Source: Escherichia coli (lineage in GTDB: Bacteria; Pseudomonadota; Gammaproteobacteria; Enterobacterales; Enterobacteriaceae). Taken from it: DNA of 64,000 nucleotides. The stretch lies in assembly GCF_002854065.1 (NCBI RefSeq), contig NZ_CP024147.1; one strand, 5' to 3'. Below the pieces are notes generated by a model, which worked only from the letters and a program-made list of their open reading frames with translations, was not told the origin of the DNA and did not search any database. Below, in pieces: positions 40,058 through 52,400 of this stretch. Position numbers and translations under genes: made by a program. Position 1 is the stretch's first letter; every line of letters begins with the position of its first letter.

Positions 40058-43000
40058 TTAATCGGTGTTGCTTTTTTCCGCTTTTCCGGCCATTTGTGCC
40101 AGGAAGTCATAGCGTTTTTGCAAATCAGCTGCAGCATCTTTCCATAACTGTTCTGCCACTTCTGGCTGCTGCGAATTCAGACGACGGAAACGTTGCTCGT
40201 GAAGTAACGTTTCTTCCAGTGCTTCTGACGGCGGGCGTGAATCCAGCGCCAGCGGCAGTTTGCCTTCATCGGCACGACGCGGATCGAAGCGATATAGCGG
40301 CCAGAAGCCGGTAGCTGTGAGTTGGCGCATCTGGTCATGGCTGAGTGCCAGATCGTAACCATGCTCTTCACACGGGCTATAAGCAATGATCAGCGATGGT
40401 CCCGGATACGCTTCCGCTTCCTGAATCGCTTTCACCGTCTGGTTCAGTTGCGCGCCGAGAGAAATCTGCGCCACATAAACATGACCGTACATCATCATAC
40501 TGACGCCAAGATCTTTACGCGCTTTACGTTTGCCGTGCTCGCCAAATTTAGTTACTGCACCCAGCGGTGTCGCTTTCGACGCCTGACCACCGGTGTTGGA
40601 ATAGCATTGCGTATCCAGCACCAGAATGTTGACGTTTTCCGTCAAACTCAATACATGATCCAGACCGCCAAAGCCGATATCGTAAGCCCAGCCGTCGCCA
40701 CCAATCAGCCAGATTGATTTTTCTACCAGTGCATCTGCGTCACGCAGCAGTTCATGTGCTTCGGCAACATCGTTGAGTTGCTGGCGTAAAGCTGCGACCT
40801 GTTCTCGACGAACCTCTGGCGTAGCGTCTGATTTCAACGCCGTCAGTAATTCCGCCGGGATTTTATCGGCAAATTGATCCAGCAGACGCAGCACGCGGAC
40901 ACGGTGTTGATCGACCGTCAGGCGGAAACCAAGGCCAAATTCGGCATTATCTTCAAATAGAGAGTTCGCCCATGCCGGCCCACGACCGTTGGCATCGGTG
41001 GTATACGGTGTAGAGGGCAGGTTACCGCCATAAATTGAAGAACAGCCGGTGGCGTTAGCGATCAACATCCGGTCGCCATAGAGCTGAGTCAGCAATTTAA
41101 TATACGGCGTCTCGCCACAACCGGAGCAAGCACCGGAATATTCAAACAGCGGTGTAATCAGCTGCGATGTACGAATATCAATACGTTCCAGTTTGCTACG
41201 GTCTATTTCTGGCAGGTTGAGGAAGAAATCGTAATTGATTTTCTCTTCTTCGACATGTTCCAGGCGAGACATCATATTGATGGCTTTAATCTCTGGATTC
41301 TGACGGTCTTTCGCCGGGCAAACTTCGACGCACAGGTTACAACCGGTGCAATCTTCCGGTGCCACCTGCAAGACATATTTCTGCCCGCGCATATCACGCG
41401 ATTTCACATCCAGCGAATGCAGGCTGGCAGGGGCGTTTTCCATCGCTTCAGGCGGCACCACTTTTGCGCGAATAGCTGAGTGTGGGCAAGCGGCAACGCA
41501 GTGGTTACATTGGGTACAGAGTTCCTCTTTCCAGATGGGGATCTCTTCGGCGATATTGCGTTTTTCCCAGCGTGTAGTGCCCATCGGCCAGGTGCCGTCT
41601 GGCGGCAGCGCCGAAACGGGGAGGGCATCACCAAGCCCGGCGAGCATCGCAGCGGTTACGGTTTTCACGAAATCAGGGGCGGCATCGGAAACCACTGGCG
41701 GTCGATTGGCGCTGTGCGGATTTACCGGTTGCAACGGAACTTCTTCTACGGATTCACGCGCCAGCGCCAGAGCCTGCCAGTTGCGCTCCACCAGATCCTG
41801 GCCTTTGCTACTGTAACTTTTGGCAATCGCACCCTGCAATTCTGCGAGGGCGCTATCGCCAGGCAGAATTTGCGTCAGATGGAAAAAAGCCATCTGCATG
41901 ACGGTATTAATACGGGCCGCCAGGCCACATTCGCGGGCGATTTTCGCTGCGTTAATCACATAGAAGCACGCTTTTTTCTGGTTTAACACGGCCTGAACTT
42001 CTTGCGGCAAGCGCGACCACACTTCATCTGCGCTGTACGGCGTGTTGAGCAGGAAAATGCCGCCAGGTTTTAAACGCTCAGCCATCTGATATTTATCGAT
42101 AAACTGCAACTGGTGGCAGCCAACAAAATCAGCCTGGGAAATGAGATAAGCGGAACGAATCGGCTGTTCGCTCACTCGAAGGTGAGAAACCGTCAGACCG
42201 CCCGCCTTTTTGGAGTCGTAAACAAAATAGCCCTGTGCGTACCACGGCGTGGAATTACCGATAATCTTGATATTGTTTTTGGTCGCGGAAACGCTGCCAT
42301 CACTACCAAGGCCATAAAACAAGGCTTCCAGTTTCGCCGAGTTTGGCAGGGTGTTTTCCGGCAACGGCAGTGACAGATTGGTCACATCATCGTAAATACC
42401 AACCGTAAAGCGCGCTTTCGGTTTAGCCGCGTTGAGCTCGGCAAATACCGCCAGTACACAGTCCGGGCCAAATTCTTTGGATGAAAGACCATAGCGCCCA
42501 CCAATGACACGGGGCAGAGTTTCGCGCTCGCCATTATTAAAGGCTTCTGCCAGTGCGGTCATTACATCCAGATAGAGCGGTTCTGCCTGGGCACCGGGTT
42601 CTTTGGTTCTGTCCAGTACCGCTACGCTGCGTACGGATCCCGGCAGAGCTTGCAGCAAGTGTTTGGCGGAGAAGGGACGGTACAGGCGAACTTTCAGCAC
42701 GCCAACTTTTTCGCCACGGGTTAGCAATTCATCAACCACTTCTTCACAGGTGCCAATGGCAGAGCCCATCAGGATAATCACCCGTTCCGCTTGCGGATGC
42801 CCGTAATATTCAAACGGCTGATACTGACGACCTGTCGCGGCAGAGAAATCATTCATCGCCTGTTCAACATGGTCATAGACCGCGTTGTACCATGGGTTGG
42901 TGGCTTCGCGAGACTGGAAATAAGTGTCAGGATTGGCGGACGTACCGCGGATCACCGGATGTTCCGGGTTGAGCGCCCGGGCGCGATGAGCATCAATTTC

Positions 43001-43582
43001 GGCCTGCGGCATGAGATCAAGAATAGTGTCATCGGCCAGCGGGACAATTTTATTGATTTCGTGGGACGTACGGAAACCATCAAAGAAATGAATAAATGGC
43101 ACGCGGCTTTTCAGCGTCGCGATGTGCGAAATGAGAGCAAAGTCTTGCGCTTCCTGGACGTTTGCCGCACACAACATCGCGCAACCCGTCTGGCGCACCG
43201 CCATGACGTCGGAATGATCGCCAAAAATAGAGAGTGCATGTGTGGCAACGGTACGTGCCGCTACATGCAGGACAAACGGTGTGAGTTCGCCTGCCAGTTT
43301 GTACAGCGTCGGGATCATCAGCAGCAAACCCTGCGATGACGTAAACGATGTTGAAAGGGCACCCGTCTGCAAAGCGCCATGCACGGTAGCGATAGCACCC
43401 GCTTCCGACTGCATTTCAACCACGCGTGGTGTGTCTCCCCAAACGTTCTTCAAGCCGTTTCCGGCCCAGGCATCAGCCTGTTCTGCCATCGTGGAACTGG
43501 GGGTAATAGGGTAGATGGCGATAACTTCACTGGTGCGAAACGCCACCGAAGCAACCGCGCCATTACCGTCAATAGTAATCAT
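40058..43582 (-). CDS. ydbK: Pyruvate:flavodoxin oxidoreductase (YdbK / Pfo)
   Basis: ORF track 1174 aa; two 4Fe-4S ferredoxin motifs (CTQCNHCVAACP, CTGCNLCVEVCP) and TPP domain. Confidence 0.95.
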   Translation of the reverse strand: MITIDGNGAVASVAFRTSEVIAIYPITPSSTMAEQADAWAGNGLKNVWGDTPRVVEMQSEAGAIATVHGALQTGALSTSFTSSQGLLLMIPTLYKLAGELTPFVLHVAARTVATHALSIFGDHSDVMAVRQTGCAMLCAANVQEAQDFALISHIATLKSRVPFIHFFDGFRTSHEINKIVPLADDTILDLMPQAEIDAHRARALNPEHPVIRGTSANPDTYFQSREATNPWYNAVYDHVEQAMNDFSAATGRQYQPFEYYGHPQAERVIILMGSAIGTCEEVVDELLTRGEKVGVLKVRLYRPFSAKHLLQALPGSVRSVAVLDRTKEPGAQAEPLYLDVMTALAEAFNNGERETLPRVIGGRYGLSSKEFGPDCVLAVFAELNAAKPKARFTVGIYDDVTNLSLPLPENTLPNSAKLEALFYGLGSDGSVSATKNNIKIIGNSTPWYAQGYFVYDSKKAGGLTVSHLRVSEQPIRSAYLISQADFVGCHQLQFIDKYQMAERLKPGGIFLLNTPYSADEVWSRLPQEVQAVLNQKKACFYVINAAKIARECGLAARINTVMQMAFFHLTQILPGDSALAELQGAIAKSYSSKGQDLVERNWQALALARESVEEVPLQPVNPHSANRPPVVSDAAPDFVKTVTAAMLAGLGDALPVSALPPDGTWPMGTTRWEKRNIAEEIPIWKEELCTQCNHCVAACPHSAIRAKVVPPEAMENAPASLHSLDVKSRDMRGQKYVLQVAPEDCTGCNLCVEVCPAKDRQNPEIKAINMMSRLEHVEEEKINYDFFLNLPEIDRSKLERIDIRTSQLITPLFEYSGACSGCGETPYIKLLTQLYGDRMLIANATGCSSIYGGNLPSTPYTTDANGRGPAWANSLFEDNAEFGLGFRLTVDQHRVRVLRLLDQFADKIPAELLTALKSDATPEVRREQVAALRQQLNDVAEAHELLRDADALVEKSIWLIGGDGWAYDIGFGGLDHVLSLTENVNILVLDTQCYSNTGGQASKATPLGAVTKFGEHGKRKARKDLGVSMMMYGHVYVAQISLGAQLNQTVKAIQEAEAYPGPSLIIAYSPCEEHGYDLALSHDQMRQLTATGFWPLYRFDPRRADEGKLPLALDSRPPSEALEETLLHEQRFRRLNSQQPEVAEQLWKDAAADLQKRYDFLAQMAGKAEKSNTD

Positions 43583-43855
43583 ATGACACCCTTACATTGC
43601 GCAAATGAGGGGCGCACGAAATTGCTGCGCGCCCAGTAGTAATCTTTCAATTTTAGCAAATGGCTTTCTTCTGCATTTTCGCTTTTGTGTCCCCCACATC
43701 AGAGTAATGAATGTTTTGATCAAACAGAGGGCAAAAAAATAGCCATAAAAAAGTAAAAATGCGGGGCAACGCGCAGGACAGCTCTCGACGCCGCCCTCTG
43801 TGCTGCCTATTATTTATGGCGGTGTCGTTTGGCTTGAAGATCAGAGGAAGAAGAG

Positions 43856-44122
43856 ATGCGAGCAGCGTTTTGGGTAGGGTGTGCCGCTTTATTGTTGTCG
43901 GCGTGTAGTAGTGAGCCTGTTCAGCAGGCGACTGCGGCGCACGTAGCGCCAGGTTTAAAAGCGTCGATGTCCAGTAGTGGAGAAGCAAATTGTGCAATGA
44001 TCGGCGGTTCGCTTTCTGTTGCCCGTCAACTGGATGGTACGGCGATTGGGATGTGTGCATTACCCAACGGCAAACGCTGTAGCGAACAGTCACTTGCCGC
44101 CGGGAGCTGTGGCAGCTATTAA
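43856..44122 (+). CDS. ydbJ: Lipoprotein YdbJ (DUF333)
   Basis: ORF track 88 aa; lipobox LLSAC. Confidence 0.85.
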   Translation: MRAAFWVGCAALLLSACSSEPVQQATAAHVAPGLKASMSSSGEANCAMIGGSLSVARQLDGTAIGMCALPNGKRCSEQSLAAGSCGSY

Positions 44123-44541
44123 TTCATTAAATCCGCCAGCTTATAAGTTAATGTCTGTTTCGCGGTCGCCAGCGTTAACTGGTTCGCGGTCAGATCCACT
44201 TGTGCACCTTCTTTCAGCATTTCGCTAATGGTGTTATCGAGTTCATTAAGCTGCGGGTTAGCGCACATCATACGGGTCATTGCCAGCCCTTTGGCTGTCA
44301 GTTCACCATTAGACAGTTTGCCTTCACCGCTAAAGCGGTTACACATGCTGCCGGAAATCATCATTTTTTCACCAAAGCTGATTTCTGGCGGATTTTTATC
44401 GCTGGTCACGGGCTTACCGTTTACGCTTTCCAGCACAAAGCGATGATGCTGTAGCTGTTCTGGCGTAACAGCAATTTTGTCATTACTTACACATCCCGCC
44501 ATCAGCAGGCTTAGCGCAACAAACGCGGCTACTTTCTTCAT
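44119..44541 (-). CDS. hslJ: Heat-inducible lipoprotein HslJ
   Basis: ORF track 44119..44553; start trimmed to MKKVAAFVALSLLMAGC (140 aa); lipobox. Confidence 0.9.
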   Translation of the reverse strand: MKKVAAFVALSLLMAGCVSNDKIAVTPEQLQHHRFVLESVNGKPVTSDKNPPEISFGEKMMISGSMCNRFSGEGKLSNGELTAKGLAMTRMMCANPQLNELDNTISEMLKEGAQVDLTANQLTLATAKQTLTYKLADLMN

Positions 44542-44651
44542 TGTGGTTCTCAATTACAGTTTCTGACTCAGGACTATTTTAAGAATAGAGAATGAAAGGT
44601 CATTGGGGATTATCTGAATCAGCTCCCCTGGATTGCAGGGGAGCGGCAAGA

Positions 44652-45641
44652 TTAAACCAGTTCGTTCGGGCAGGTTTCACCTTTTTCCAGATTGCTTAAG
44701 TTTTGCAGCGTAGTCTGAGAAATACTGGTCAGAGCTTCTGCTGTCAGGAATGCCTGGTGCCCGGTAAACAGCACGTTGTGGCAGGCGGACAGGCGACGGA
44801 ATACGTCATCCTGGATCACGTCGTTGGATTTATCTTCAAAGAACAGATCGCGTTCGTTCTCATACACGTCCATACCCAACGAACCAATTTTCTGATTTTT
44901 CAGCGCTTCAATTGCTGCCTGAGAATCAATCAATGCACCGCGACTGGTATTGACGATCATCACGCCATTTTTCATCTGATCGAAGGCGGCTTCGTTCAAC
45001 AGATGGTAGTTTTCCGGTGTCAGCGGGCAGTGCAGAGAGATAACGTCTGATTCAGAGAACAGGGTTGGCAGATCGACATACTCCACACCGAGTTCCAGCG
45101 CCGCTGCACTTGGATACGGATCGAACGCCAGCAGACGCATACCAAAACCTTTCAGAATGCGCAGCATCGCCACACCGATTTTACCGGTACCGATAACGCC
45201 TGCCGTTTTGCCATACATAGTAAAGCCAGTCAGACCTTCTAGAGAGAAGTTGGCGTCACGGGTACGCTGATACGCGCGGTGAATACGGCGGTTCAGCGTC
45301 ATCATCATACCGATGGCGTGTTCAGCAACGGCCTCTGGATCATAGGCTGGAACACGGACTACTTTCAGCCCCAGTTCTTTTGCCGCGTCAAGGTCGACGT
45401 TATTGAAACCGGCACAGCGCAGGGCGATATATTTAACGCCGTGCTTTTTCAGCTCTTCCAGCACCGGGCGGCTGCCGTCATCGTTTACGAAAATACATAC
45501 TGCTTCGCAGCCATTGGCAGTTTTAGCGGTTTTTTCCGTCAGCAGAAAGTCAAAAAATTCCAGCTCAAAGCCAAAGGACTCGTTCACCTGTTGCAGGTAC
45601 TTCTTGTCGTACTGTTTTGTGCTATAAACGGCGAGTTTCAT
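44652..45641 (-). CDS. ldhA: Fermentative D-lactate dehydrogenase LdhA
   Basis: ORF track 329 aa; D-2-hydroxyacid dehydrogenase NAD motif GVIGTGKIG. Confidence 0.95.
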   Translation of the reverse strand: MKLAVYSTKQYDKKYLQQVNESFGFELEFFDFLLTEKTAKTANGCEAVCIFVNDDGSRPVLEELKKHGVKYIALRCAGFNNVDLDAAKELGLKVVRVPAYDPEAVAEHAIGMMMTLNRRIHRAYQRTRDANFSLEGLTGFTMYGKTAGVIGTGKIGVAMLRILKGFGMRLLAFDPYPSAAALELGVEYVDLPTLFSESDVISLHCPLTPENYHLLNEAAFDQMKNGVMIVNTSRGALIDSQAAIEALKNQKIGSLGMDVYENERDLFFEDKSNDVIQDDVFRRLSACHNVLFTGHQAFLTAEALTSISQTTLQNLSNLEKGETCPNELV

Positions 45642-45848
45642 AAGACTTTCTCCAGTGATGTTGAATCACATTTAAGCTACTAAAAATATTTTACAAAATT
45701 TCAAATTTAATTGAAAGCTATGGCGATATTGAAAAATTCATCAACAACTATGCTTAGTGTAGGCGCAACCTTCAACTGAACGGTTAAACATGCCACAATA
45801 CCCGTATTGAATGCTTAATTTTTCGCTAAATCAGGATATTAACTACCC

Positions 45849-48488
45849 ATGCTGGGTAAATATAAAGCCGTTCTCGCGCTGTTATTACTGATTATTCTTG
45901 TGCCGTTGACGCTGCTGATGACGCTCGGGCTGTGGGTTCCCACGCTGGCGGGCATCTGGCTACCGCTCGGGACACGTATTGCATTAGATGAAAGCCCACG
46001 CATTACGCGTAAAGGTTTAATCATTCCCGATCTCCGTTATCTGGTGGGAGATTGTCAGCTTGCGCATATCACCAACGCCAGCCTTTCACATCCCAGCCGC
46101 TGGTTATTGAACGTCGGCACGGTAGAACTTGATTCTGCTTGTCTGGCGAAATTGCCGCAGACGGAGCAATCGCCAGCTGCTCCAAAAACCCTCGCGCAAT
46201 GGCAGTCCATGCTGCCTAACACCTGGATCAATATTGATAAACTGATTTTTTCTCCCTGGCAGGAATGGCAGGGAAAACTCTCTCTCGCATTAACCTCCGA
46301 TATCCAGCAACTGCGTTATCAGGGCGAAAAAGTTAAATTTCAAGGCCAGCTGAAAGGGCAACAACTTACAGTCAGCGAACTGGATGTCGTCGCGTTTGAA
46401 AATCAGCCGCCGGTTAAACTGGTGGGGGAATTTACTATGCCGCTAGTGCCGGATGGACTTCCTGTAAGTGGTCATGCTACTGCGACGTTAAACTTGCCGC
46501 AGGAACCGTCACTGGTAGATGCCGAGCTGGACTGGCAGGAAAATAGCGGGCAATTGATTGTGCTGGCACGGGATAACGGCGATCCGTTGCTCGATTTGCC
46601 GTGGCAAATTACGCGTCAACAATTGACCGTAAGCGATGGTCGCTGGAGCTGGCCGTATGCAGATTTTCCTTTGAGTGGCCGACTGGGTGTCAAAGTCGAC
46701 AACTGGCAGGCAGGGCTTGAGAACGCTCTGGTCAGCGGACGACTGAGTGTGCTGACCCAGGGGCAAGCGGGTAAGGGCAACGCGGTGCTTAATTTTGGCC
46801 CAGGAAAATTAAGCATGGATAACAGCCAGCTGCCTCTGCAGCTGACCGGTGAAGCGAAACAGGCGGACCTCATTTTATATGCCCGTTTACCTGCGCAGGT
46901 AAGTGGAAGTCTGTCTGACCCAACGCTGACCTTTGAGCCAGGCGCGTTACTTCGTTCAAAGGGAAGAGTCATCGATTCGCTGGACATCGATGAAATCCGC
47001 TGGCCTTTAGCGGGTGTAAAAGTCACCCAACGTGGTGTTGACGGACGTTTGCAGGCCATTTTGCAGGCGCATGAAAATGAACTGGGCGATTTCGTGCTGC
47101 ATATGGATGGGCTGGCGAATGATTTTCTCCCTGACGCTGGCCGCTGGCAGTGGCGCTACTGGGGAAAAGGGAGTTTTACACCGATGAATGCCACCTGGGA
47201 TGTCGCAGGAAAAGGTGAGTGGCATGACAGCACGATTACGCTGACCGATCTCTCCACCGGTTTCGACCAGTTACAATACGGTACGATGACGGTAGAAAAG
47301 CCGCGATTAATTCTCGACAAGCCCGTCGTCTGGGTACGTGACGCACAGCATCCCTCCTTCAGCGGCACGCTGTCACTGGACGCCGGGCAAACGCTGTTCA
47401 CTGGCGGCAGTGTGTTACCGCCATCAACCTTAAAATTTAGCGTCGATGGGCGCGATCCGACGTATTTCCTCTTTAAAGGCGATTTACATGCTGGTGAGAT
47501 TGGCCCGGTTCGGGTAAATGGTCGCTGGGACGGTATTCGTCTGCGCGGTAATGCCTGGTGGCCTAAACAATCACTGACTGTATTCCAGCCGCTGGTGCCA
47601 CCCGACTGGAAGATGAACTTACGCGATGGTGAACTGTATGCTCAGGTTGCATTTTCTGCTGCGCCTGAACAAGGATTCCGCGCGGGAGGGCACGGCGTGT
47701 TGAAAGGCGGTAGTGCCTGGATGCCAGATAATCAGGTTAACGGTGTCGATTTTGTCCTGCCTTTCCGTTTTGCCGATGGAGCCTGGCATCTGGGGACTCG
47801 CGGCCCCGTTACGTTGCGAATTGCCGAAGTGATTAATCTGGTGACAGCGAAAAATATTACGGCTGATTTGCAAGGGCGTTATCCGTGGACTGAAGAAGAA
47901 CCATTGCTGTTGACTGATGTTAGCGTCGATGTGTTAGGCGGTAACGTGCTGATGAAACAATTACGTATGCCGCAACATGACCCGGCGCTGTTGCGGCTGA
48001 ATAATCTCTCATCCAGCGAACTGGTTAGCGCCGTCAATCCGAAACAATTTGCCATGTCCGGGGCATTTAGTGGTGCATTGCCGTTATGGCTGAACAATGA
48101 AAAATGGATTGTCAAAGAGGGCTGGTTGGCAAACGCGGGGCCGATGACGCTGCGTCTGGATAAAGACACTGCAGATGCGGTGGCCAAAGACAATATGACC
48201 GCTGGAACTGCCATCAACTGGTTGCGTTATATGGAAATCAGTCGCTCATCAACAAGGATTAATTTAGATAATCTCGGTGTGTTAACCATGCAGGCCAACA
48301 TTTCGGGCACCAGTCGCGTCGATGGTAAAAGCGGTACGGTAAACCTTAATTATCACCATGAAGAGAATATTTTTACGTTATGGCGCAGTTTACGCTTTGG
48401 CGATAATCTCCAGGTATGGCTGGAGCAGAATGCCCAGCTACCGGAAACTGGCTGCCCATCAGGAAAAGAGTGTGAGGAAAAACAATGA
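45849..48488 (+). CDS. ydbH: AsmA-like large envelope protein YdbH
   Basis: ORF track 879 aa with N-terminal TM anchor; synteny. Confidence 0.9.
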   Translation: MLGKYKAVLALLLLIILVPLTLLMTLGLWVPTLAGIWLPLGTRIALDESPRITRKGLIIPDLRYLVGDCQLAHITNASLSHPSRWLLNVGTVELDSACLAKLPQTEQSPAAPKTLAQWQSMLPNTWINIDKLIFSPWQEWQGKLSLALTSDIQQLRYQGEKVKFQGQLKGQQLTVSELDVVAFENQPPVKLVGEFTMPLVPDGLPVSGHATATLNLPQEPSLVDAELDWQENSGQLIVLARDNGDPLLDLPWQITRQQLTVSDGRWSWPYADFPLSGRLGVKVDNWQAGLENALVSGRLSVLTQGQAGKGNAVLNFGPGKLSMDNSQLPLQLTGEAKQADLILYARLPAQVSGSLSDPTLTFEPGALLRSKGRVIDSLDIDEIRWPLAGVKVTQRGVDGRLQAILQAHENELGDFVLHMDGLANDFLPDAGRWQWRYWGKGSFTPMNATWDVAGKGEWHDSTITLTDLSTGFDQLQYGTMTVEKPRLILDKPVVWVRDAQHPSFSGTLSLDAGQTLFTGGSVLPPSTLKFSVDGRDPTYFLFKGDLHAGEIGPVRVNGRWDGIRLRGNAWWPKQSLTVFQPLVPPDWKMNLRDGELYAQVAFSAAPEQGFRAGGHGVLKGGSAWMPDNQVNGVDFVLPFRFADGAWHLGTRGPVTLRIAEVINLVTAKNITADLQGRYPWTEEEPLLLTDVSVDVLGGNVLMKQLRMPQHDPALLRLNNLSSSELVSAVNPKQFAMSGAFSGALPLWLNNEKWIVKEGWLANAGPMTLRLDKDTADAVAKDNMTAGTAINWLRYMEISRSSTRINLDNLGVLTMQANISGTSRVDGKSGTVNLNYHHEENIFTLWRSLRFGDNLQVWLEQNAQLPETGCPSGKECEEKQ

Positions 48489-48670
48489 AAATAGTGATAG
48501 CCGCGTTTGCGTCCTCTTTTATGTTGGTTGGTTGCACGCCTCGCATTGAAGTGGCTGCGCCGAAAGAGCCAATCACCATTAATATGAACGTTAAAATTGA
48601 GCATGAAATCATCATTAAAGCGGATAAGGACGTTGAAGACCTGCTCAAAACCCGTAGCGATCTATTTTGA
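48485..48670 (+). CDS. ynbE: Small lipoprotein YnbE
   Basis: ORF track 61 aa; lipobox LVGC; start overlaps ydbH stop. Confidence 0.85.
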   Translation: MKIVIAAFASSFMLVGCTPRIEVAAPKEPITINMNVKIEHEIIIKADKDVEDLLKTRSDLF

Positions 48671-48674
48671 GGTG

Positions 48675-49001
48675 ATGATGAAAAGAACATTACTCATAGC
48701 TGTATGGGCCATTGGCCTGATGAGCGACAGTGCAATGGCTTTAACCCTGAACGAAGCCAGAAGTCAGGGGCGGGTAGGTGAAACGCTTAACGGTTACCTG
48801 GTGGCGCTACAAACGGATGCCGAAACACAGGCATTAGTAAAAGATATTAATGAAGCTCGTAACCATAGTTATCAACAACTGGCAAAGCAAAATAATGTAT
48901 CCACTAAAGAGATAGCCAAACTGGCTGGACAAAAGCTTGTTGCTCGCGCGAAGTCGGGGCAATATGTTCAGGGAATTAATGGTAAATGGTTGCGCAAATA
49001 A
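48675..49001 (+). CDS. ydbL: Periplasmic protein YdbL (DUF1318)
   Basis: ORF track 48597..49001; start trimmed to MMKRTLLIAVWAIG (108 aa) with signal peptide. Confidence 0.85.
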   Translation: MMKRTLLIAVWAIGLMSDSAMALTLNEARSQGRVGETLNGYLVALQTDAETQALVKDINEARNHSYQQLAKQNNVSTKEIAKLAGQKLVARAKSGQYVQGINGKWLRK

Positions 49002-49408
49002 ATTATAGTTGGCTACAAAATGTATCTATTAATGATCTTTTACAGTATTTAAACTGACGTTAGCATGCTTAATTACCGTGGGTATTTCTACAAAAACCTT
49101 ATATATCCTTCCCTTAAATAACAAATCATTACCAATATATATGTAATCACAAAATATATATGCAGCGTCAATGAATTATTAGTGTGTTTTTGTTTTTTGT
49201 CGTTAATTTTTAGATTGAAGTGAGTTTTTTGTGGAATATAATTCCATCAACTGTTTTTTTGTATGCTTTTACTTGCCTGATTTTAATATTGATTTTGTGA
49301 ATTATATAAGCATTTCTTTATTGCTTATTTCACTATGAATATTTACTACGATTTATCTTCAAATTCTGCATGGCTTGTTACGCACGGTCTAGATCTAAGG
49401 AATTTTAT

Positions 49409-52400
49409 ATGCAAAGGAAAAAATTATTGTCTGTTTGTGTTGCCATGGCGTTAAGTAGCCAGACATGGGCTGCGGATACTTCAATACCCGACTCAACCGA
49501 AAAAACACGTAAGTCCAGTAAGATAACATGTCCGGCAAATATTCATTCCCTGAGCAAAGAGCAGCTAGAAAATTTATCCGCGGAGTGCAGAGAAAATAAA
49601 GATAGTGCAGTTTTACCATGGGCAGCTGCAGGTCTTGCTGCAGTAGCTACGGGAATTGCTATATATACCTTAAGTGACGATGACAATCACCACCATAATA
49701 ACTCCCCAGTTCCGGATGATGGCGGTGATACGCCAGTTCCGCCAGACGACGGCGGTGATACGCCGGTTCCGCCAGATGACGGCGGTGATACGCCGGTTCC
49801 GCCAGATGACGGCGGTGATACGCCAGTTCCGCCAGATGACGGCGGTGATACGCCAGTTCCGCCAGATGACGGCGATGATACGCCGGTTCCGCCAGATGAC
49901 GGCGGTGATACGCCAGTTCCGCCAGATGACGGCGGTGATACGCCAGTTCCGCCAGATGACGGCGGTGATACGCCGGTTCCACCAGATGATGGCGGTGATA
50001 CGCCAGTTCCAGACGACGGCGGTGATACGCCTGTTCCGCCAGACGATGGTGGCGATACCCCGGTTAAACACGATCCTGTCGTCTATAAAAATGACGTAAC
50101 CTGGGATCAGGACGCGAAAACCGTCAAAATTCGCGAAACCACCTTTACCTACAGCCAAAATGCCGATGGGAGTTACACCTTAACCGCGCCTGATGGCCTG
50201 ACGACGATAGTCAAGGGCTGGACAGTCCATGACGACAGCAACACCGTCATCTTTGATGGCGTAAATACGGCAGGTGGCATCACCTGGAGCTACGACGATG
50301 ATGGGCTCATCCATATCACTAAAGAGGCCGGTGTCGTTGTTGATGGCACAACCGGAACTGCGATTGATTTTGGTAATGCGATCATCACCGATCAGGGCGG
50401 CAATACGGCGCTGAATGGCGGTACTGTCATGACGGTTGAGGGTGACAACATCACCCTCAACAACGACGGTAAAACGACCGCCATCGGCGAGGGTTCGGTC
50501 GTTGGTATCCTTACTGGTGACGATATCACTATCAATAACAACGGCGAGACGGAAGTTGACGGCGGTACCGCAGTAATCATCAATGGCGATAATGCTACGC
50601 TGAACACTGCGGGCGACTCGACCATCACCAATGGTGGTACGGGTAGCCTTATCAATGGCGATAATGCGCGGGTCGATAATCAAGGTACCATGAGCGTTGA
50701 CGGTGAGAATTCCACTGGCTCGAAAATTGTCGGTGACGGTGCCACCATCAAACAGGAAGGCGACTTATACGTAAGCGGTGGTGCGCACGGTATTGACGTT
50801 GACGGCAATGATACGTTCGTTAGCAACAAAGGTAATATTACGGTCATCGAAGATAACTCTATTGGCATGCTGCTTGATGGTGATGGCGTCAGCGTGATCA
50901 ACATGGGCGACCTCAATGTTGGTCAGGCCGCAGCGGGTGAAAATGCCATTGGCATTCAGATCGACGGTGATAATGCGACATTTGTTAACGTTGGTGATAT
51001 TTCCGCGACCAATGCCGGAACCGGTGTCAGCGTTGCTGGGGATAAAGCTAATATTTCACTCGCGGGTGGGTTAGACGTTGGGGATTTCTCCACCGGTCTT
51101 GATGTCTCTGGCAATAATAACAACATGACGCTGGCGACTTATGAGCTGAATGTGACAGGGCAAAAAGCGACGGGTGTTAATGTTTCGGGTGATGGCAATA
51201 CGATTGAAATCGCAGGCAGCATTCTGGTTGATAAAGATCAGAAAGCCGATAATGCGCAACCTTACTTCTTTAATCCCTCAACCGGCGTAAATATCAGCGG
51301 TAATAACAATGACGTCACGCTGGATGGTCAGTTAACCGTTGTTGCTGATAGCGAAACCACTACGCGTTCCTATGCAAGTTACGACGGTGCTCAGGAGCAC
51401 ATTGCGGGTATTGTTATTGCTGGCGATGACAATACCTTCACGCTTAATGGCGGTGTCCATTTTGTCGGTGAAAAAAATGTCATGGATGATGGCTCAAAAC
51501 CTGCCGCATCTCGTCGTGGTATCGGAGATACACCGCTTATGAGCGTTGATGGGCATTCCTCAGTCTACCTCAATGGTGAGTCAACCATCAGCGGTGAGTT
51601 CCCGCTGGGTTTCGAAAATCTCATTCAACTGAGTAATGGCGCGGAGCTGGAGATTGGCGCTGACGCAACGTTTGATATGAGTGATGTGGATTCTTTCACT
51701 TATTATTATCGTGTAGCGTTATCCACTATTAGTATTGATTATGGTGCGAAGGCGACAAACAACGGTGAAGTGGAACTGAAAAATATCGGTTTTGCGGCTG
51801 CCTGGAATAAAGATTCAACGGTAATCAATAACGGATCCATTGGCCTGGCGATGTACGATTTTGGTACCGACCCGGCACCAAAAGTCTTTGACGTTGAATA
51901 CGGTGGGATTGGCGTTAACAATGGTACCATGACCACCAAAATGATGAATCAGCACAGTGTGCTGAATTATCCGGCAGAGTGGAACTTGTCTGATGGTACC
52001 TCTTTCAATAACAAGGCATTAGGGCTGACAGGTATGCTTGCCAGCTACTCGTCATCCATTCTGAACGGCGAAACGGGCATTATTGATATGTATGGCCGTG
52101 GCAGTGTAGGGATGCTAGCCATCGATAAATCAACCGCGGATAACGAAGGGCAAATCACCCTGGATACGCTGTGGGTTGATGAAAATGATGAAACATCGCT
52201 GCGTAATAATGTTGCAAATAGCACGGCGAAAGATTTCGGTGTGGGAATGGCTTCAGGTACCGATGCCTATAATGGGGCATTAACTAAAGCCACGGCAACC
52301 AACCACGAGAATGGTGTGATTACTGTCTACAACGCCGGTGCGGGGATGGCGGCGTATGGGAATACTAATACGGTCATTAACCAGGGAACCATCAACCTGG

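Follow-up and report, generated by a model that had tools for sequence, protein, structure and literature searches.

How phospholipids move to the outer membrane was for a long time a gap in envelope biology, and the case for the importance of modules that may serve this route has already been made in print. The closest described system to the locus examined here is that of Escherichia coli K-12 (b1381-b1383; Kumar 2024; De'Ath 2026), in which YnbE is an outer-membrane lipoprotein that cross-links to the YdbH C-terminus and extends the YdbH groove (Kumar, Davis & Ruiz 2024, PMC11126948), with cross-links mapped to W791 and W857 in YdbH and to I21 and V50 in YnbE (PMC11126948). Both YnbE and YdbH are essential in a K-12 tamB yhdP double mutant, while YdbL, a chaperone-like periplasmic protein, is non-essential and becomes toxic when overproduced (PMC11126948). 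The YdbL structure has been solved (PDB 28oj) and its YnbE binding site mapped, the C-terminal helix of YnbE being the part that is bound (De'Ath 2026, 10.64898/2026.03.16.712125). In P. aeruginosa, YnbE is likewise needed for YdbH (PMC12447247).

According to the literature, TamA-TamB and YhdP are like YdbH in having an N-terminal inner-membrane anchor, a long beta-groove and a redundant essential role, and TamB has an outer-membrane partner as well (PMC11126948). The tamA-tamB pair in K-12 also shares a 4-nt overlap. In contrast, YdbH is the shorter protein, with 879 aa compared with 1259 in TamB; in place of a beta-barrel it is partnered by a lipoprotein, 44 residues long when mature, that lengthens the sheet; and YdbL serves it as a dedicated periplasmic modulator.

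The ydbH-ynbE-ydbL operon and its products

The window, a stretch of 64,000 nucleotides of E. coli DNA (contig NZ_CP024147.1), holds the same genes as K-12 in the same order and with the same lengths, ATGA overlap, 7-nt second junction, lipobox and signal peptide. Very probably, then, its operon is ydbH-ynbE-ydbL, one of three redundant AsmA-like bridges alongside TamB and YhdP, in a copy that is a natural recombinant. The features are as follows.

45642..45848, plus strand: ldhA-ydbH divergent intergenic region, 100% identical to K-12; presumed site of the operon promoter
45849..48488, plus strand: ydbH, open reading frame of 879 aa; predicted inner-membrane-anchored bridge protein
45858..45959, plus strand: YdbH N-terminal hydrophobic helix, predicted inner-membrane anchor; codons 4-37, sequence KYKAVLALLLLIILVPLTLLMTLGLWVPTLAGIW, modelled as a single helix
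48474..48477, plus strand: GAGG, putative Shine-Dalgarno for ynbE; inside ydbH, 7 nt 5' of the ATG
48485..48670, plus strand: ynbE, 61 aa; predicted outer-membrane lipoprotein with lipobox LVGC (Cys17) and stop codon at 48668-48670
48669..48672, plus strand: GAGG, putative Shine-Dalgarno for ydbL; overlaps the ynbE stop, sequence TTTTGAGGTGATGATG
48678..49001, plus strand: ydbL, 107 aa; predicted periplasmic chaperone-like modulator, signal peptide at residues 1-21
49002..49369, no strand: AT-rich spacer from ydbL to ydbA (GC 0.27 at 49000-49399)

The initial annotation had named these three genes, taken the operon to be intact and placed it immediately before an AT-rich ydbA region, and all of this was borne out. 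The names agree with the Pfam and NCBIfam matches given below and with the RefSeq annotation, each gene is a full-length frame free of frameshifts, and the spacer of about 27% GC is followed directly by an intact ydbA frame at 49370-55273. The operon region is present and identically annotated in 5417 of 5426 complete E. coli genomes.

YdbH matches the Pfam family PF11739 (YdbH-like; E 5e-292, 972.3 bits against a cut-off of 26.3, residues 14-863 on profile positions 1-893) and the NCBIfam equivalog NF007971 (1399.6 bits against a cut-off of 824), and has 98% amino acid identity to the K-12 protein. Its AF2 model, built with 45 sequences (pLDDT 78.8), consists of a helix at residues 4-37 and then about 55 beta-strands up to residue 840. 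Here, the helix coincides with the hydrophobic N-terminus, in agreement with the anchor that had been proposed and with the transmembrane anchor described for K-12 (PMC11126948). Both residues that cross-link to YnbE, W791 and W857, are present in the window protein and are invariant in the 45-sequence alignment. The assignment of YdbH to the AsmA family, also made at the outset, holds per the literature (PMC11126948) but was not reproduced by our sequence and fold searches: hhalign comparison of the YdbH profile with single TamB and AsmA sequences detected no similarity (probability 0.7% and 2.3%), and beyond the YdbH family a Pfam search at E ≤ 10 returned DUF748 alone (E 0.083, below its cut-off).

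YnbE matches PF13617 (YnbE-like lipoprotein; E 1.7e-16, 60.1 bits against a cut-off of 25.8, residues 26-59). The LVGC lipobox read by the initial annotation is present, with Cys17 followed by Thr at +2, a position occupied by T, V or I in 47 loci, with no Asp in any of them, which is compatible with outer-membrane sorting. The protein is 90% identical to that of K-12; residues 17-51 are unchanged, including I21, the beta-strand region I30-A46 and V50, and so the sequence of the amphipathic strand I30-I44, which augments YdbH and drives multimerisation, is kept. Two changes, E52D and E55K, fall in the C-terminal helix, the second being a charge reversal in the helix that docks into a positively charged YdbL pocket. 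A fused YdbH(680-879)-YnbE-YdbL AF2 model, a single-chain stand-in for the multimer, reproduced the expected secondary structure, with a YnbE strand at 30-35 (pLDDT <50), a confident helix at 44-56 and a well-folded YdbL.

YdbL matches PF07027 (DUF1318; E 1.1e-30, 106.4 bits against a cut-off of 27) and, over residues 22-107, PDB entry 28oj, 'Probable chaperone-like protein YdbL' (E 1.2e-38). Its N-terminus reads MKRTLLIAVWAIGLMSDSAMA|LTL; in the solved structure the K-12 chain begins at the equivalent L22, in keeping with the signal peptide that had been predicted. This protein is 73% identical to its K-12 counterpart, from which it differs by 29 substitutions in 107 positions, without the final Phe, and is 100% identical to that of Escherichia sp. 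E1V33. Nevertheless, the residues at which full or partial loss of function is reported are all conserved (L24, R28, E35, Y40, N58, R61, Y65, L68, N72, I79, K86, L87, R90, W104 and K107), and the lone interface change relative to K-12 is E60 to Ala, a substitution tolerated in the K-12 study (De'Ath et al. 2026, 10.64898/2026.03.16.712125).

Junctions and translational coupling

The overlap noted earlier between the ydbH stop and the ynbE start is confirmed: the TGA at 48486-48488 and the ATG at 48485-48487 share the tetranucleotide ATGA at 48485-48488. Every aligned Escherichia sequence has the same 32 nt up to the end of this ATGA, as does the K-12 construct of Huber et al. 2019. Moreover, ynbE overlaps the ydbH stop in 46 of 47 species-representative loci from the Enterobacterales, by a 4-nt ATGA or GTGA in 33 of the 47. 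The tightness of the second junction likewise stands, though the 4 nt first given for it does not. Two adjacent ATGs follow ynbE, at 48675 (4-nt gap) and 48678 (7-nt gap), and the first was rejected as the ydbL start in favour of the second, which is the start in the PGAP and K-12 annotations, is the only one of the two conserved in E. whittamii, Raoultella and Pluralibacter, and is better placed relative to the GAGG at 48669-48672 (5 nt away, as against 2 nt for the first). Of 46 species-representative loci, 45 have 7-16 nt between ynbE and ydbL, and TGAGG or TAGGAG is kept at this junction across 47 loci. The junctions are thus far from chance, as their layout is kept across Enterobacterales loci.

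In K-12 reporter assays, ydbH and ynbE showed strong translational coupling by termination-reinitiation, with the Shine-Dalgarno being essential (Huber 2019, PMC6728339). The overlap and upstream intragenic Shine-Dalgarno of such a coupled pair (Huber et al. 2019) are both found in the window, and the coupling claimed for this locus agrees with experiment on the same ATGA and Shine-Dalgarno arrangement in K-12. Ribosomes would terminate ydbH translation at the ATGA and then reinitiate on ynbE, and the position of ydbL, 7 nt downstream with its Shine-Dalgarno over the ynbE stop, would tie the ratio of the three proteins. Such a ratio would matter, since too much YdbL is toxic to cells that rely on the YdbH bridge. 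We found no start-masking RNA structure at the ynbE start, where folds of the -99..+30 segment were no stabler than shuffles for either allele (z-scores of -0.22 for the window and +0.73 for K-12) and the consensus fold had a weak covariation term (-1.36).

As for other signals, the operon promoter is presumed to lie in 45642..45848. A consensus sigma-70 scan of 45500-49500 gave no site in this ldhA-ydbH spacer, and a terminator scan of the same segment gave no terminator-like site 3' of ydbL. The promoter scan did return a TTGAAG-16-TATAAT at 49215-49242 in the AT-rich spacer, with promoter and terminator consensus counts over 45500-49500 at the level of shuffles. An Rfam scan of 43000-50000 at E ≤ 0.1 had zero matches.

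The diverged 3' block

The K-12 and window sequences part company toward the 3' end, with a DNA identity of about 81% over 0.9 kb there and about 99% over the rest. Judged by its sequence, the window copy is a natural recombinant, in which the first ~745 ydbH codons are ordinary E. coli and the remainder, together with the downstream DNA, is a diverged block. This recombinant nature is not described in the literature searched. Two further features describe it.

48085..48112, no strand: putative recombination breakpoint interval in ydbH, codons 746-755
48113..49770, plus strand: E1V33-like block, comprising the last ~125 ydbH codons, ynbE, ydbL, the spacer and the start of ydbA; the right limit is the end of the E1V33 contig, where the comparison stops

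Up to about 48084 the window is 98.9% identical to K-12 and, upstream of the breakpoint, 88.5% identical to Escherichia sp. E1V33, whereas from 48113 through ydbL, the spacer and the ydbA start it is 99.4% identical to E1V33 and about 81% to K-12. K-12 and E1V33 differ at 451 sites; those up to 48084 are K-12-like in the window, and from 48113 on 162 of 165 match E1V33. Sliding identity places the switch of ancestry at the same point. The block has 99-100% identity to L003 throughout. Against K-12 its identity is 74-89% to the ydbL stop, after which there is no homology, and its dS is 0.64-1.77 versus K-12 as compared with 0-0.03 versus E1V33.

The same block is found in other strains. Over 45600-49400, strain 100416 matches the window with 100% identity, and it shares its YnbE (WP_000706310.1) with O157:H7. 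The O157:H7 allele is at least 99% identical to the window in the 3' block and similarly runs from ydbL directly into the AT-rich spacer and ydbA, though there the ancestry switches at a point between 48011 and 48032, about 60-80 nt before that of the window, and ydbA is broken into two CDS. Altogether, 374 of the 5426 complete E. coli genomes (~7%, mostly O157:H7) carry the block, which is at least 99% conserved across 340 genomes. In K-12, a ~19-kb feaR-to-paaY cluster that is absent from the window lies between ydbL and ydbA. Within E. coli the block is linked near-perfectly to absence of this fea-paa cluster, with the spacer adjoining ydbL in 373 genomes as against the 374 with the block. 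Arrival of the K-12-type block together with the fea-paa island was considered and not sustained, as the linkage breaks across species: SCPM-O-B-8794 has a window-like ydbL next to feaR-feaB-tynA, Citrobacter sp. NCU1 also has fea genes at the ydbL locus, and MOD1-EC7003 has a K-12-type ydbL without them.

One reading of the block is that it constitutes a co-adapted cassette in which the YdbH C-terminal domain, YnbE and YdbL have to fit one another and are for that reason exchanged together, so that two deeply diverged 'business ends' (~19% in DNA, 27% in YdbL protein) have been swapped between Escherichia species and the O157:H7 type is functionally different from, or partly incompatible with, that of K-12. 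The breakpoint (codons 746-755) lies a short way 5' of the codons for the part of YdbH in contact with YnbE and YdbL, and therefore all interacting parts come from one donor. Moreover, YdbL is 27% diverged, E55K lies in the binding helix of YnbE, and the two allele types are discrete among the 5426 genomes, none falling between 90% and 95% identity. Against this, linkage to a downstream hot spot of gene content (373 versus 374 genomes) explains co-transfer without selection, the essential residues are all conserved in the window allele, and natural mixtures occur. Escherichia sp. MOD1-EC7003 pairs YnbE K55 with a K-12-type YdbL, on which account covariation between YnbE residue 55 and YdbL type was rejected, and SCPM-O-B-8794 mixes a K-12-like ydbH 3' end, a YnbE with K-12-like signal peptide and window-identical mature part, and a window-like ydbL. 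As K55 is found in every genus other than the K-12 lineage, E55 looks to be a novelty of that lineage and not one half of a covarying pair. We thus regard matched exchange as unlikely, and a functional difference between the two types as equally so.

Function of the operon copy

Following the K-12 literature, YdbH would sit with its N-terminal helix in the inner membrane and span the periplasm with its long beta-sheet groove, and the I30-I38 strand of YnbE, lipid-anchored in the outer membrane, would join the last YdbH strand by beta-strand augmentation. Multimerisation of YnbE would lengthen the groove towards the outer membrane, periplasmic YdbL would restrain runaway multimerisation by binding the YnbE C-terminal helix, and phospholipids are proposed to pass along the YdbH-YnbE groove. 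That YnbE and YdbL act as outer-membrane and periplasmic cofactors of YdbH, as the initial annotation had supposed, is established for the K-12 alleles (PMC11126948; 10.64898/2026.03.16.712125). Indeed, the checks it proposed (complex prediction, yhdP and tamB genetics, and physical interaction) have all been carried out for K-12 in the literature, and the mechanism is therefore not new here: the three-gene bridge is already published (2019-2026 papers), and the window adds nothing to it. Since the essential residues are all conserved, we expect the window allele to work like that of K-12. Values of dN/dS versus K-12 (ynbE ~0.03, the 3' part of ydbH ~0.08 and ydbL ~0.21) indicate purifying selection.

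It is also improbable, if conceivable, that a real YdbH-YnbE-YdbL complex has a main job other than bulk phospholipid flow, such as a tether, a stress- or lipid-species-specific route or a polar-localised function. The published work itself presents lipid transport by YdbH as 'proposed' and notes that biochemical evidence is lacking (PMC11126948), the predicted YdbH-YnbE complex is thought too short for the periplasm, with extra partners suspected (PMC11126948; PMC12447247), and functional diversification of the paralogues is described in the literature. However, the synthetic lethal interaction with tamB and yhdP, like the suppression obtained with extra copies, points to overlapping function (PMC11126948), and a preprint reports that the groove of TamB, a paralogue, contains lipids. 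Decay of the chimeric ydbH or of the whole operon in the window lineage, tolerated through TamB and YhdP redundancy, is less probable still, for although single ydbH, ynbE or ydbL deletions have no phenotype in K-12 (PMC11126948) and the surrounding region is unsettled, with an IS1 in ydbD and, in other strains, a broken ydbA, the three unbroken frames, dN/dS well below 1 in every segment, conservation of the block across those 340 genomes, and intact coupling signals and essential residues all argue against it.

The favoured reading remains that of a working, redundant bridge in a recombinant copy, and its interest lies in the allele. Structural and genetic studies of YdbL and YnbE have all been made with the K-12 allele, and the O157:H7-type allele, with more than a quarter of its YdbL positions changed, would be a natural test of which interface residues matter. 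The locus is equally a clean case of recombination between species in which the exchanged DNA has its end point within a gene for an envelope protein.

The operon and its described mechanism

The three open reading frames were located precisely where the initial annotation had placed them, on one strand:

45849-48488, same strand as ynbE and ydbL: ydbH, ORF of 879 aa
48485-48670, same strand as ydbH and ydbL: ynbE, ORF of 61 aa with its stop at 48668-48670
48678-49001 (start as in the RefSeq and K-12 annotation), same strand as ydbH and ynbE: ydbL, ORF

As had been proposed, the ydbH stop overlaps the ynbE start, the two having a common ATGA (48485-48488) with a GAGG 7 nt 5′ of it. The ynbE stop is followed by two neighbouring ATGs, at 48675 (4-nt gap) and 48678 (7-nt gap). 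Here, the tight ynbE-ydbL junction claimed initially stands, though its 4-nt gap, taken to the first ATG, does not, the gap being 7 nt. We rejected 48675 as the ydbL start, since 48678 is the RefSeq and K-12 annotation and the sole ATG conserved in several relatives; its spacing from a GAGG overlapping the ynbE stop is also better than that of 48675. Pfam searches returned PF11739 (YdbH-like; E 5e-292), PF13617 (YnbE-like lipoprotein), and PF07027 (DUF1318), and NCBIfam gave a YdbH equivalog match. The stretch belongs to the E. coli chromosome. Its region 45600-49400 is identical (100%) to strain 100416, and, of 5426 complete E. coli genomes, 5417 carry the operon stretch. Of 47 species-representative loci, drawn from Escherichia, Citrobacter, Raoultella, Serratia, Erwinia, Pantoea, Cedecea, and Proteus, 46 have a ynbE that overlaps the ydbH stop, 33 of them by these 4 nt, and the gap between ynbE and the ydbL start is 7-16 nt in 45 of 46. 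A lipobox was located by search in 45 of the 47 loci, always with the invariant Cys and never with Asp at +2. Judged from these sequences, the close packing of the three genes exceeds chance.

The initial reading, a YdbH described in the literature as AsmA-like, with YnbE and YdbL as its partners, is correct and already published, and every test it proposed has also been carried out; the system is known in detail. The ydbH/ynbE pair, studied together with four other native E. coli pairs, is strongly coupled in translation via termination-reinitiation, for which the Shine-Dalgarno is strictly required (Huber et al., 2019; PMC6728339). YdbH, TamB, and YhdP are redundant and jointly essential (Ruiz et al., 2021; Douglass et al., 2022). 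YnbE is an outer-membrane lipoprotein that multimerises and, like YdbH, is essential in cells deleted for tamB and yhdP; it cross-links to YdbH at the latter's W791 and W857, and the required YnbE strand, I30-I38, is predicted to lengthen the YdbH groove by β-strand augmentation (Kumar, Davis and Ruiz, 2024; PMC11126948). The same authors discussed the ATGA overlap and ynbE-ydbL coupling, and found YdbL to be dispensable and chaperone-like, though lethal in excess. The YnbE requirement holds in P. aeruginosa too (PMC12447247). Subsequently, the YdbL structure was solved (PDB ID: 28oj), its binding was mapped to the YnbE C-terminal helix with the required residues identified, and YdbL was found to be degraded by DegP unless YnbE-bound (De'Ath et al., 2026; 10.64898/2026.03.16.712125). 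Given this sensitivity to surplus YdbL, we infer that coupling would serve to fix the YdbH/YnbE/YdbL ratios.

Breakpoint in ydbH and two haplotypes

Comparison with K-12 and Escherichia sp. E1V33 delimited two further features:

48085-48112: recombination breakpoint in ydbH, K-12-like to E1V33-like
48113-49770 and beyond: E1V33-like block, by identity comparison

Between ldhA and about 48084, the window and K-12 are 98.9% identical; from there to the ydbL end, identity is about 81%, and homology ends at that point. Against E1V33, identity instead rises from 88.5% upstream of the breakpoint to 99.4% downstream, and stays high through the AT-rich spacer into ydbA, up to the E1V33 contig end. At 451 sites distinguishing the two, the window follows K-12 to 48084 and E1V33 from 48113. 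Across the breakpoint, dS goes from 0.044 to 0.64-1.77 against K-12 and from 0.67 to 0-0.03 against E1V33. On these comparisons, the window's ydbH is chimeric and the operon a mosaic. No paper on this allele was found in the searchable literature mentioning ydbL, and we regard it as a modest, apparently unreported side observation.

When 48110-49369 was compared with the 5426 complete genomes, this 3′ block (the last ~125 ydbH codons to the ydbA start) proved bimodal, with 374 genomes at ≥95%, about 5020 of the K-12 type near 81%, and none at 90-95%. The 5′ part is ≥97.9% in all. Carriers of the window type are for the most part O157:H7, plus scattered others. The O157:H7 crossover lies at the equivalent of 48011-48032, preceding that of the window by about 60-80 nt, an offset that suggests more than one recombination event or later patching.

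Gene content 3′ of ydbL and origin of the block

The surroundings downstream comprise:

49215-49242: promoter-like site in the AT-rich spacer 5′ of ydbA (TTGAAG, 16-nt spacer, TATAAT; 10/12 matches), the top such match within the scanned region
49370-55273: ydbA, intact ORF of 1967 aa with BigA_N and BigA_beta domains
49715-50065: tandem repeat near the ydbA start (30-nt unit, 11.8 copies, 91% matches), encoding proline-rich PPDDGGDTPV repeats
57716-58483: IS1 (InsA and IS1 DDE transposase), 768 bp, inserted in ydbD (DUF2773)

The intact ydbA contrasts with the K-12 pseudogene broken by IS2 and IS30, the two CDS of O157:H7, and the IS1-cut copy of strain 100416. The E1V33 contig ends within the 30-nt repeat, probably an assembly break. 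IS1 divides ydbD into ORFs 56411-57742 and 58514-59500, while K-12 is colinear over the insertion site. Past the operon, identity to K-12 is 69-71% in the ydbA passenger region, 92.9% over 53412-57715, and 97.2% over 58484-64000.

In K-12, a ~19-kb feaR-feaB-tynA-paaZ..paaY cluster (1446207-1465391) separates ydbL from ydbA; it is absent at 49002 in the window, and in 373 genomes ydbL leads directly into the AT-rich spacer and ydbA. The block is thus linked to gene content within E. coli, and what follows ydbL varies among Escherichia and Citrobacter species. In this block, E1V33, E. whittamii, and E. albertii lie at roughly species-level distances; the K-12 type, also found in Escherichia sp. 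MOD1-EC7003, stands apart from them at about 81% to each. Hence, at this one locus, an E1V33-like lineage appears to be the native home of the window type, with these E. coli strains as apparent recipients.

E. coli strain SCPM-O-B-8794, a separate GTDB species representative, has a K-12-like ydbH 3′ end (96%), a YnbE whose signal peptide is K-12-like and whose mature part is the same as the window's, and a window-like YdbL (88%), then feaR-feaB-tynA at 94.6% identity to K-12; by these identities it is a natural mix of types. At YnbE residue 55 (48647-48649), Lys is found in the window, E1V33, E. whittamii, E. albertii, MOD1-EC7003, and Citrobacter, and the K-12 Glu is a lineage-specific novelty.

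Since the linkage of haplotype to island is not strict across species, and a simple covariation of YnbE residue 55 with YdbL fails, physical linkage to a gene-turnover hot spot is the economical explanation; a co-adapted cassette seems unlikely.

Tested residues in the window's allele

Compared with the K-12 proteins, the window's YdbH is 98% identical, YnbE 90%, and YdbL only 73%, and dN/dS is well under 1 in all segments. Conserved are YdbH W791 and W857, YnbE 17-51 (including I21, the β-strand, and V50), and YdbL L24, R28, E35, Y40, N58, R61, Y65, L68, N72, I79, K86, L87, R90, W104, and K107. The sole YdbL interface change, E60A, is one tolerated in De'Ath et al. (2026). In an AF2 model of YdbH, residues 4-37 form a helix, and an all-β body comes after it. 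In a fused AF2 chain, YdbH(680-879)-linker-YnbE-linker-YdbL, the YnbE part forms a low-confidence strand over 30-35 and a 44-56 helix of pLDDT about 84, and the YdbL part folds well; these models agree with the published mechanism and support it weakly. The published work on YdbL and YnbE has used the K-12 type throughout, and the positions tested experimentally are, as read from the alignments, intact in the window's allele.
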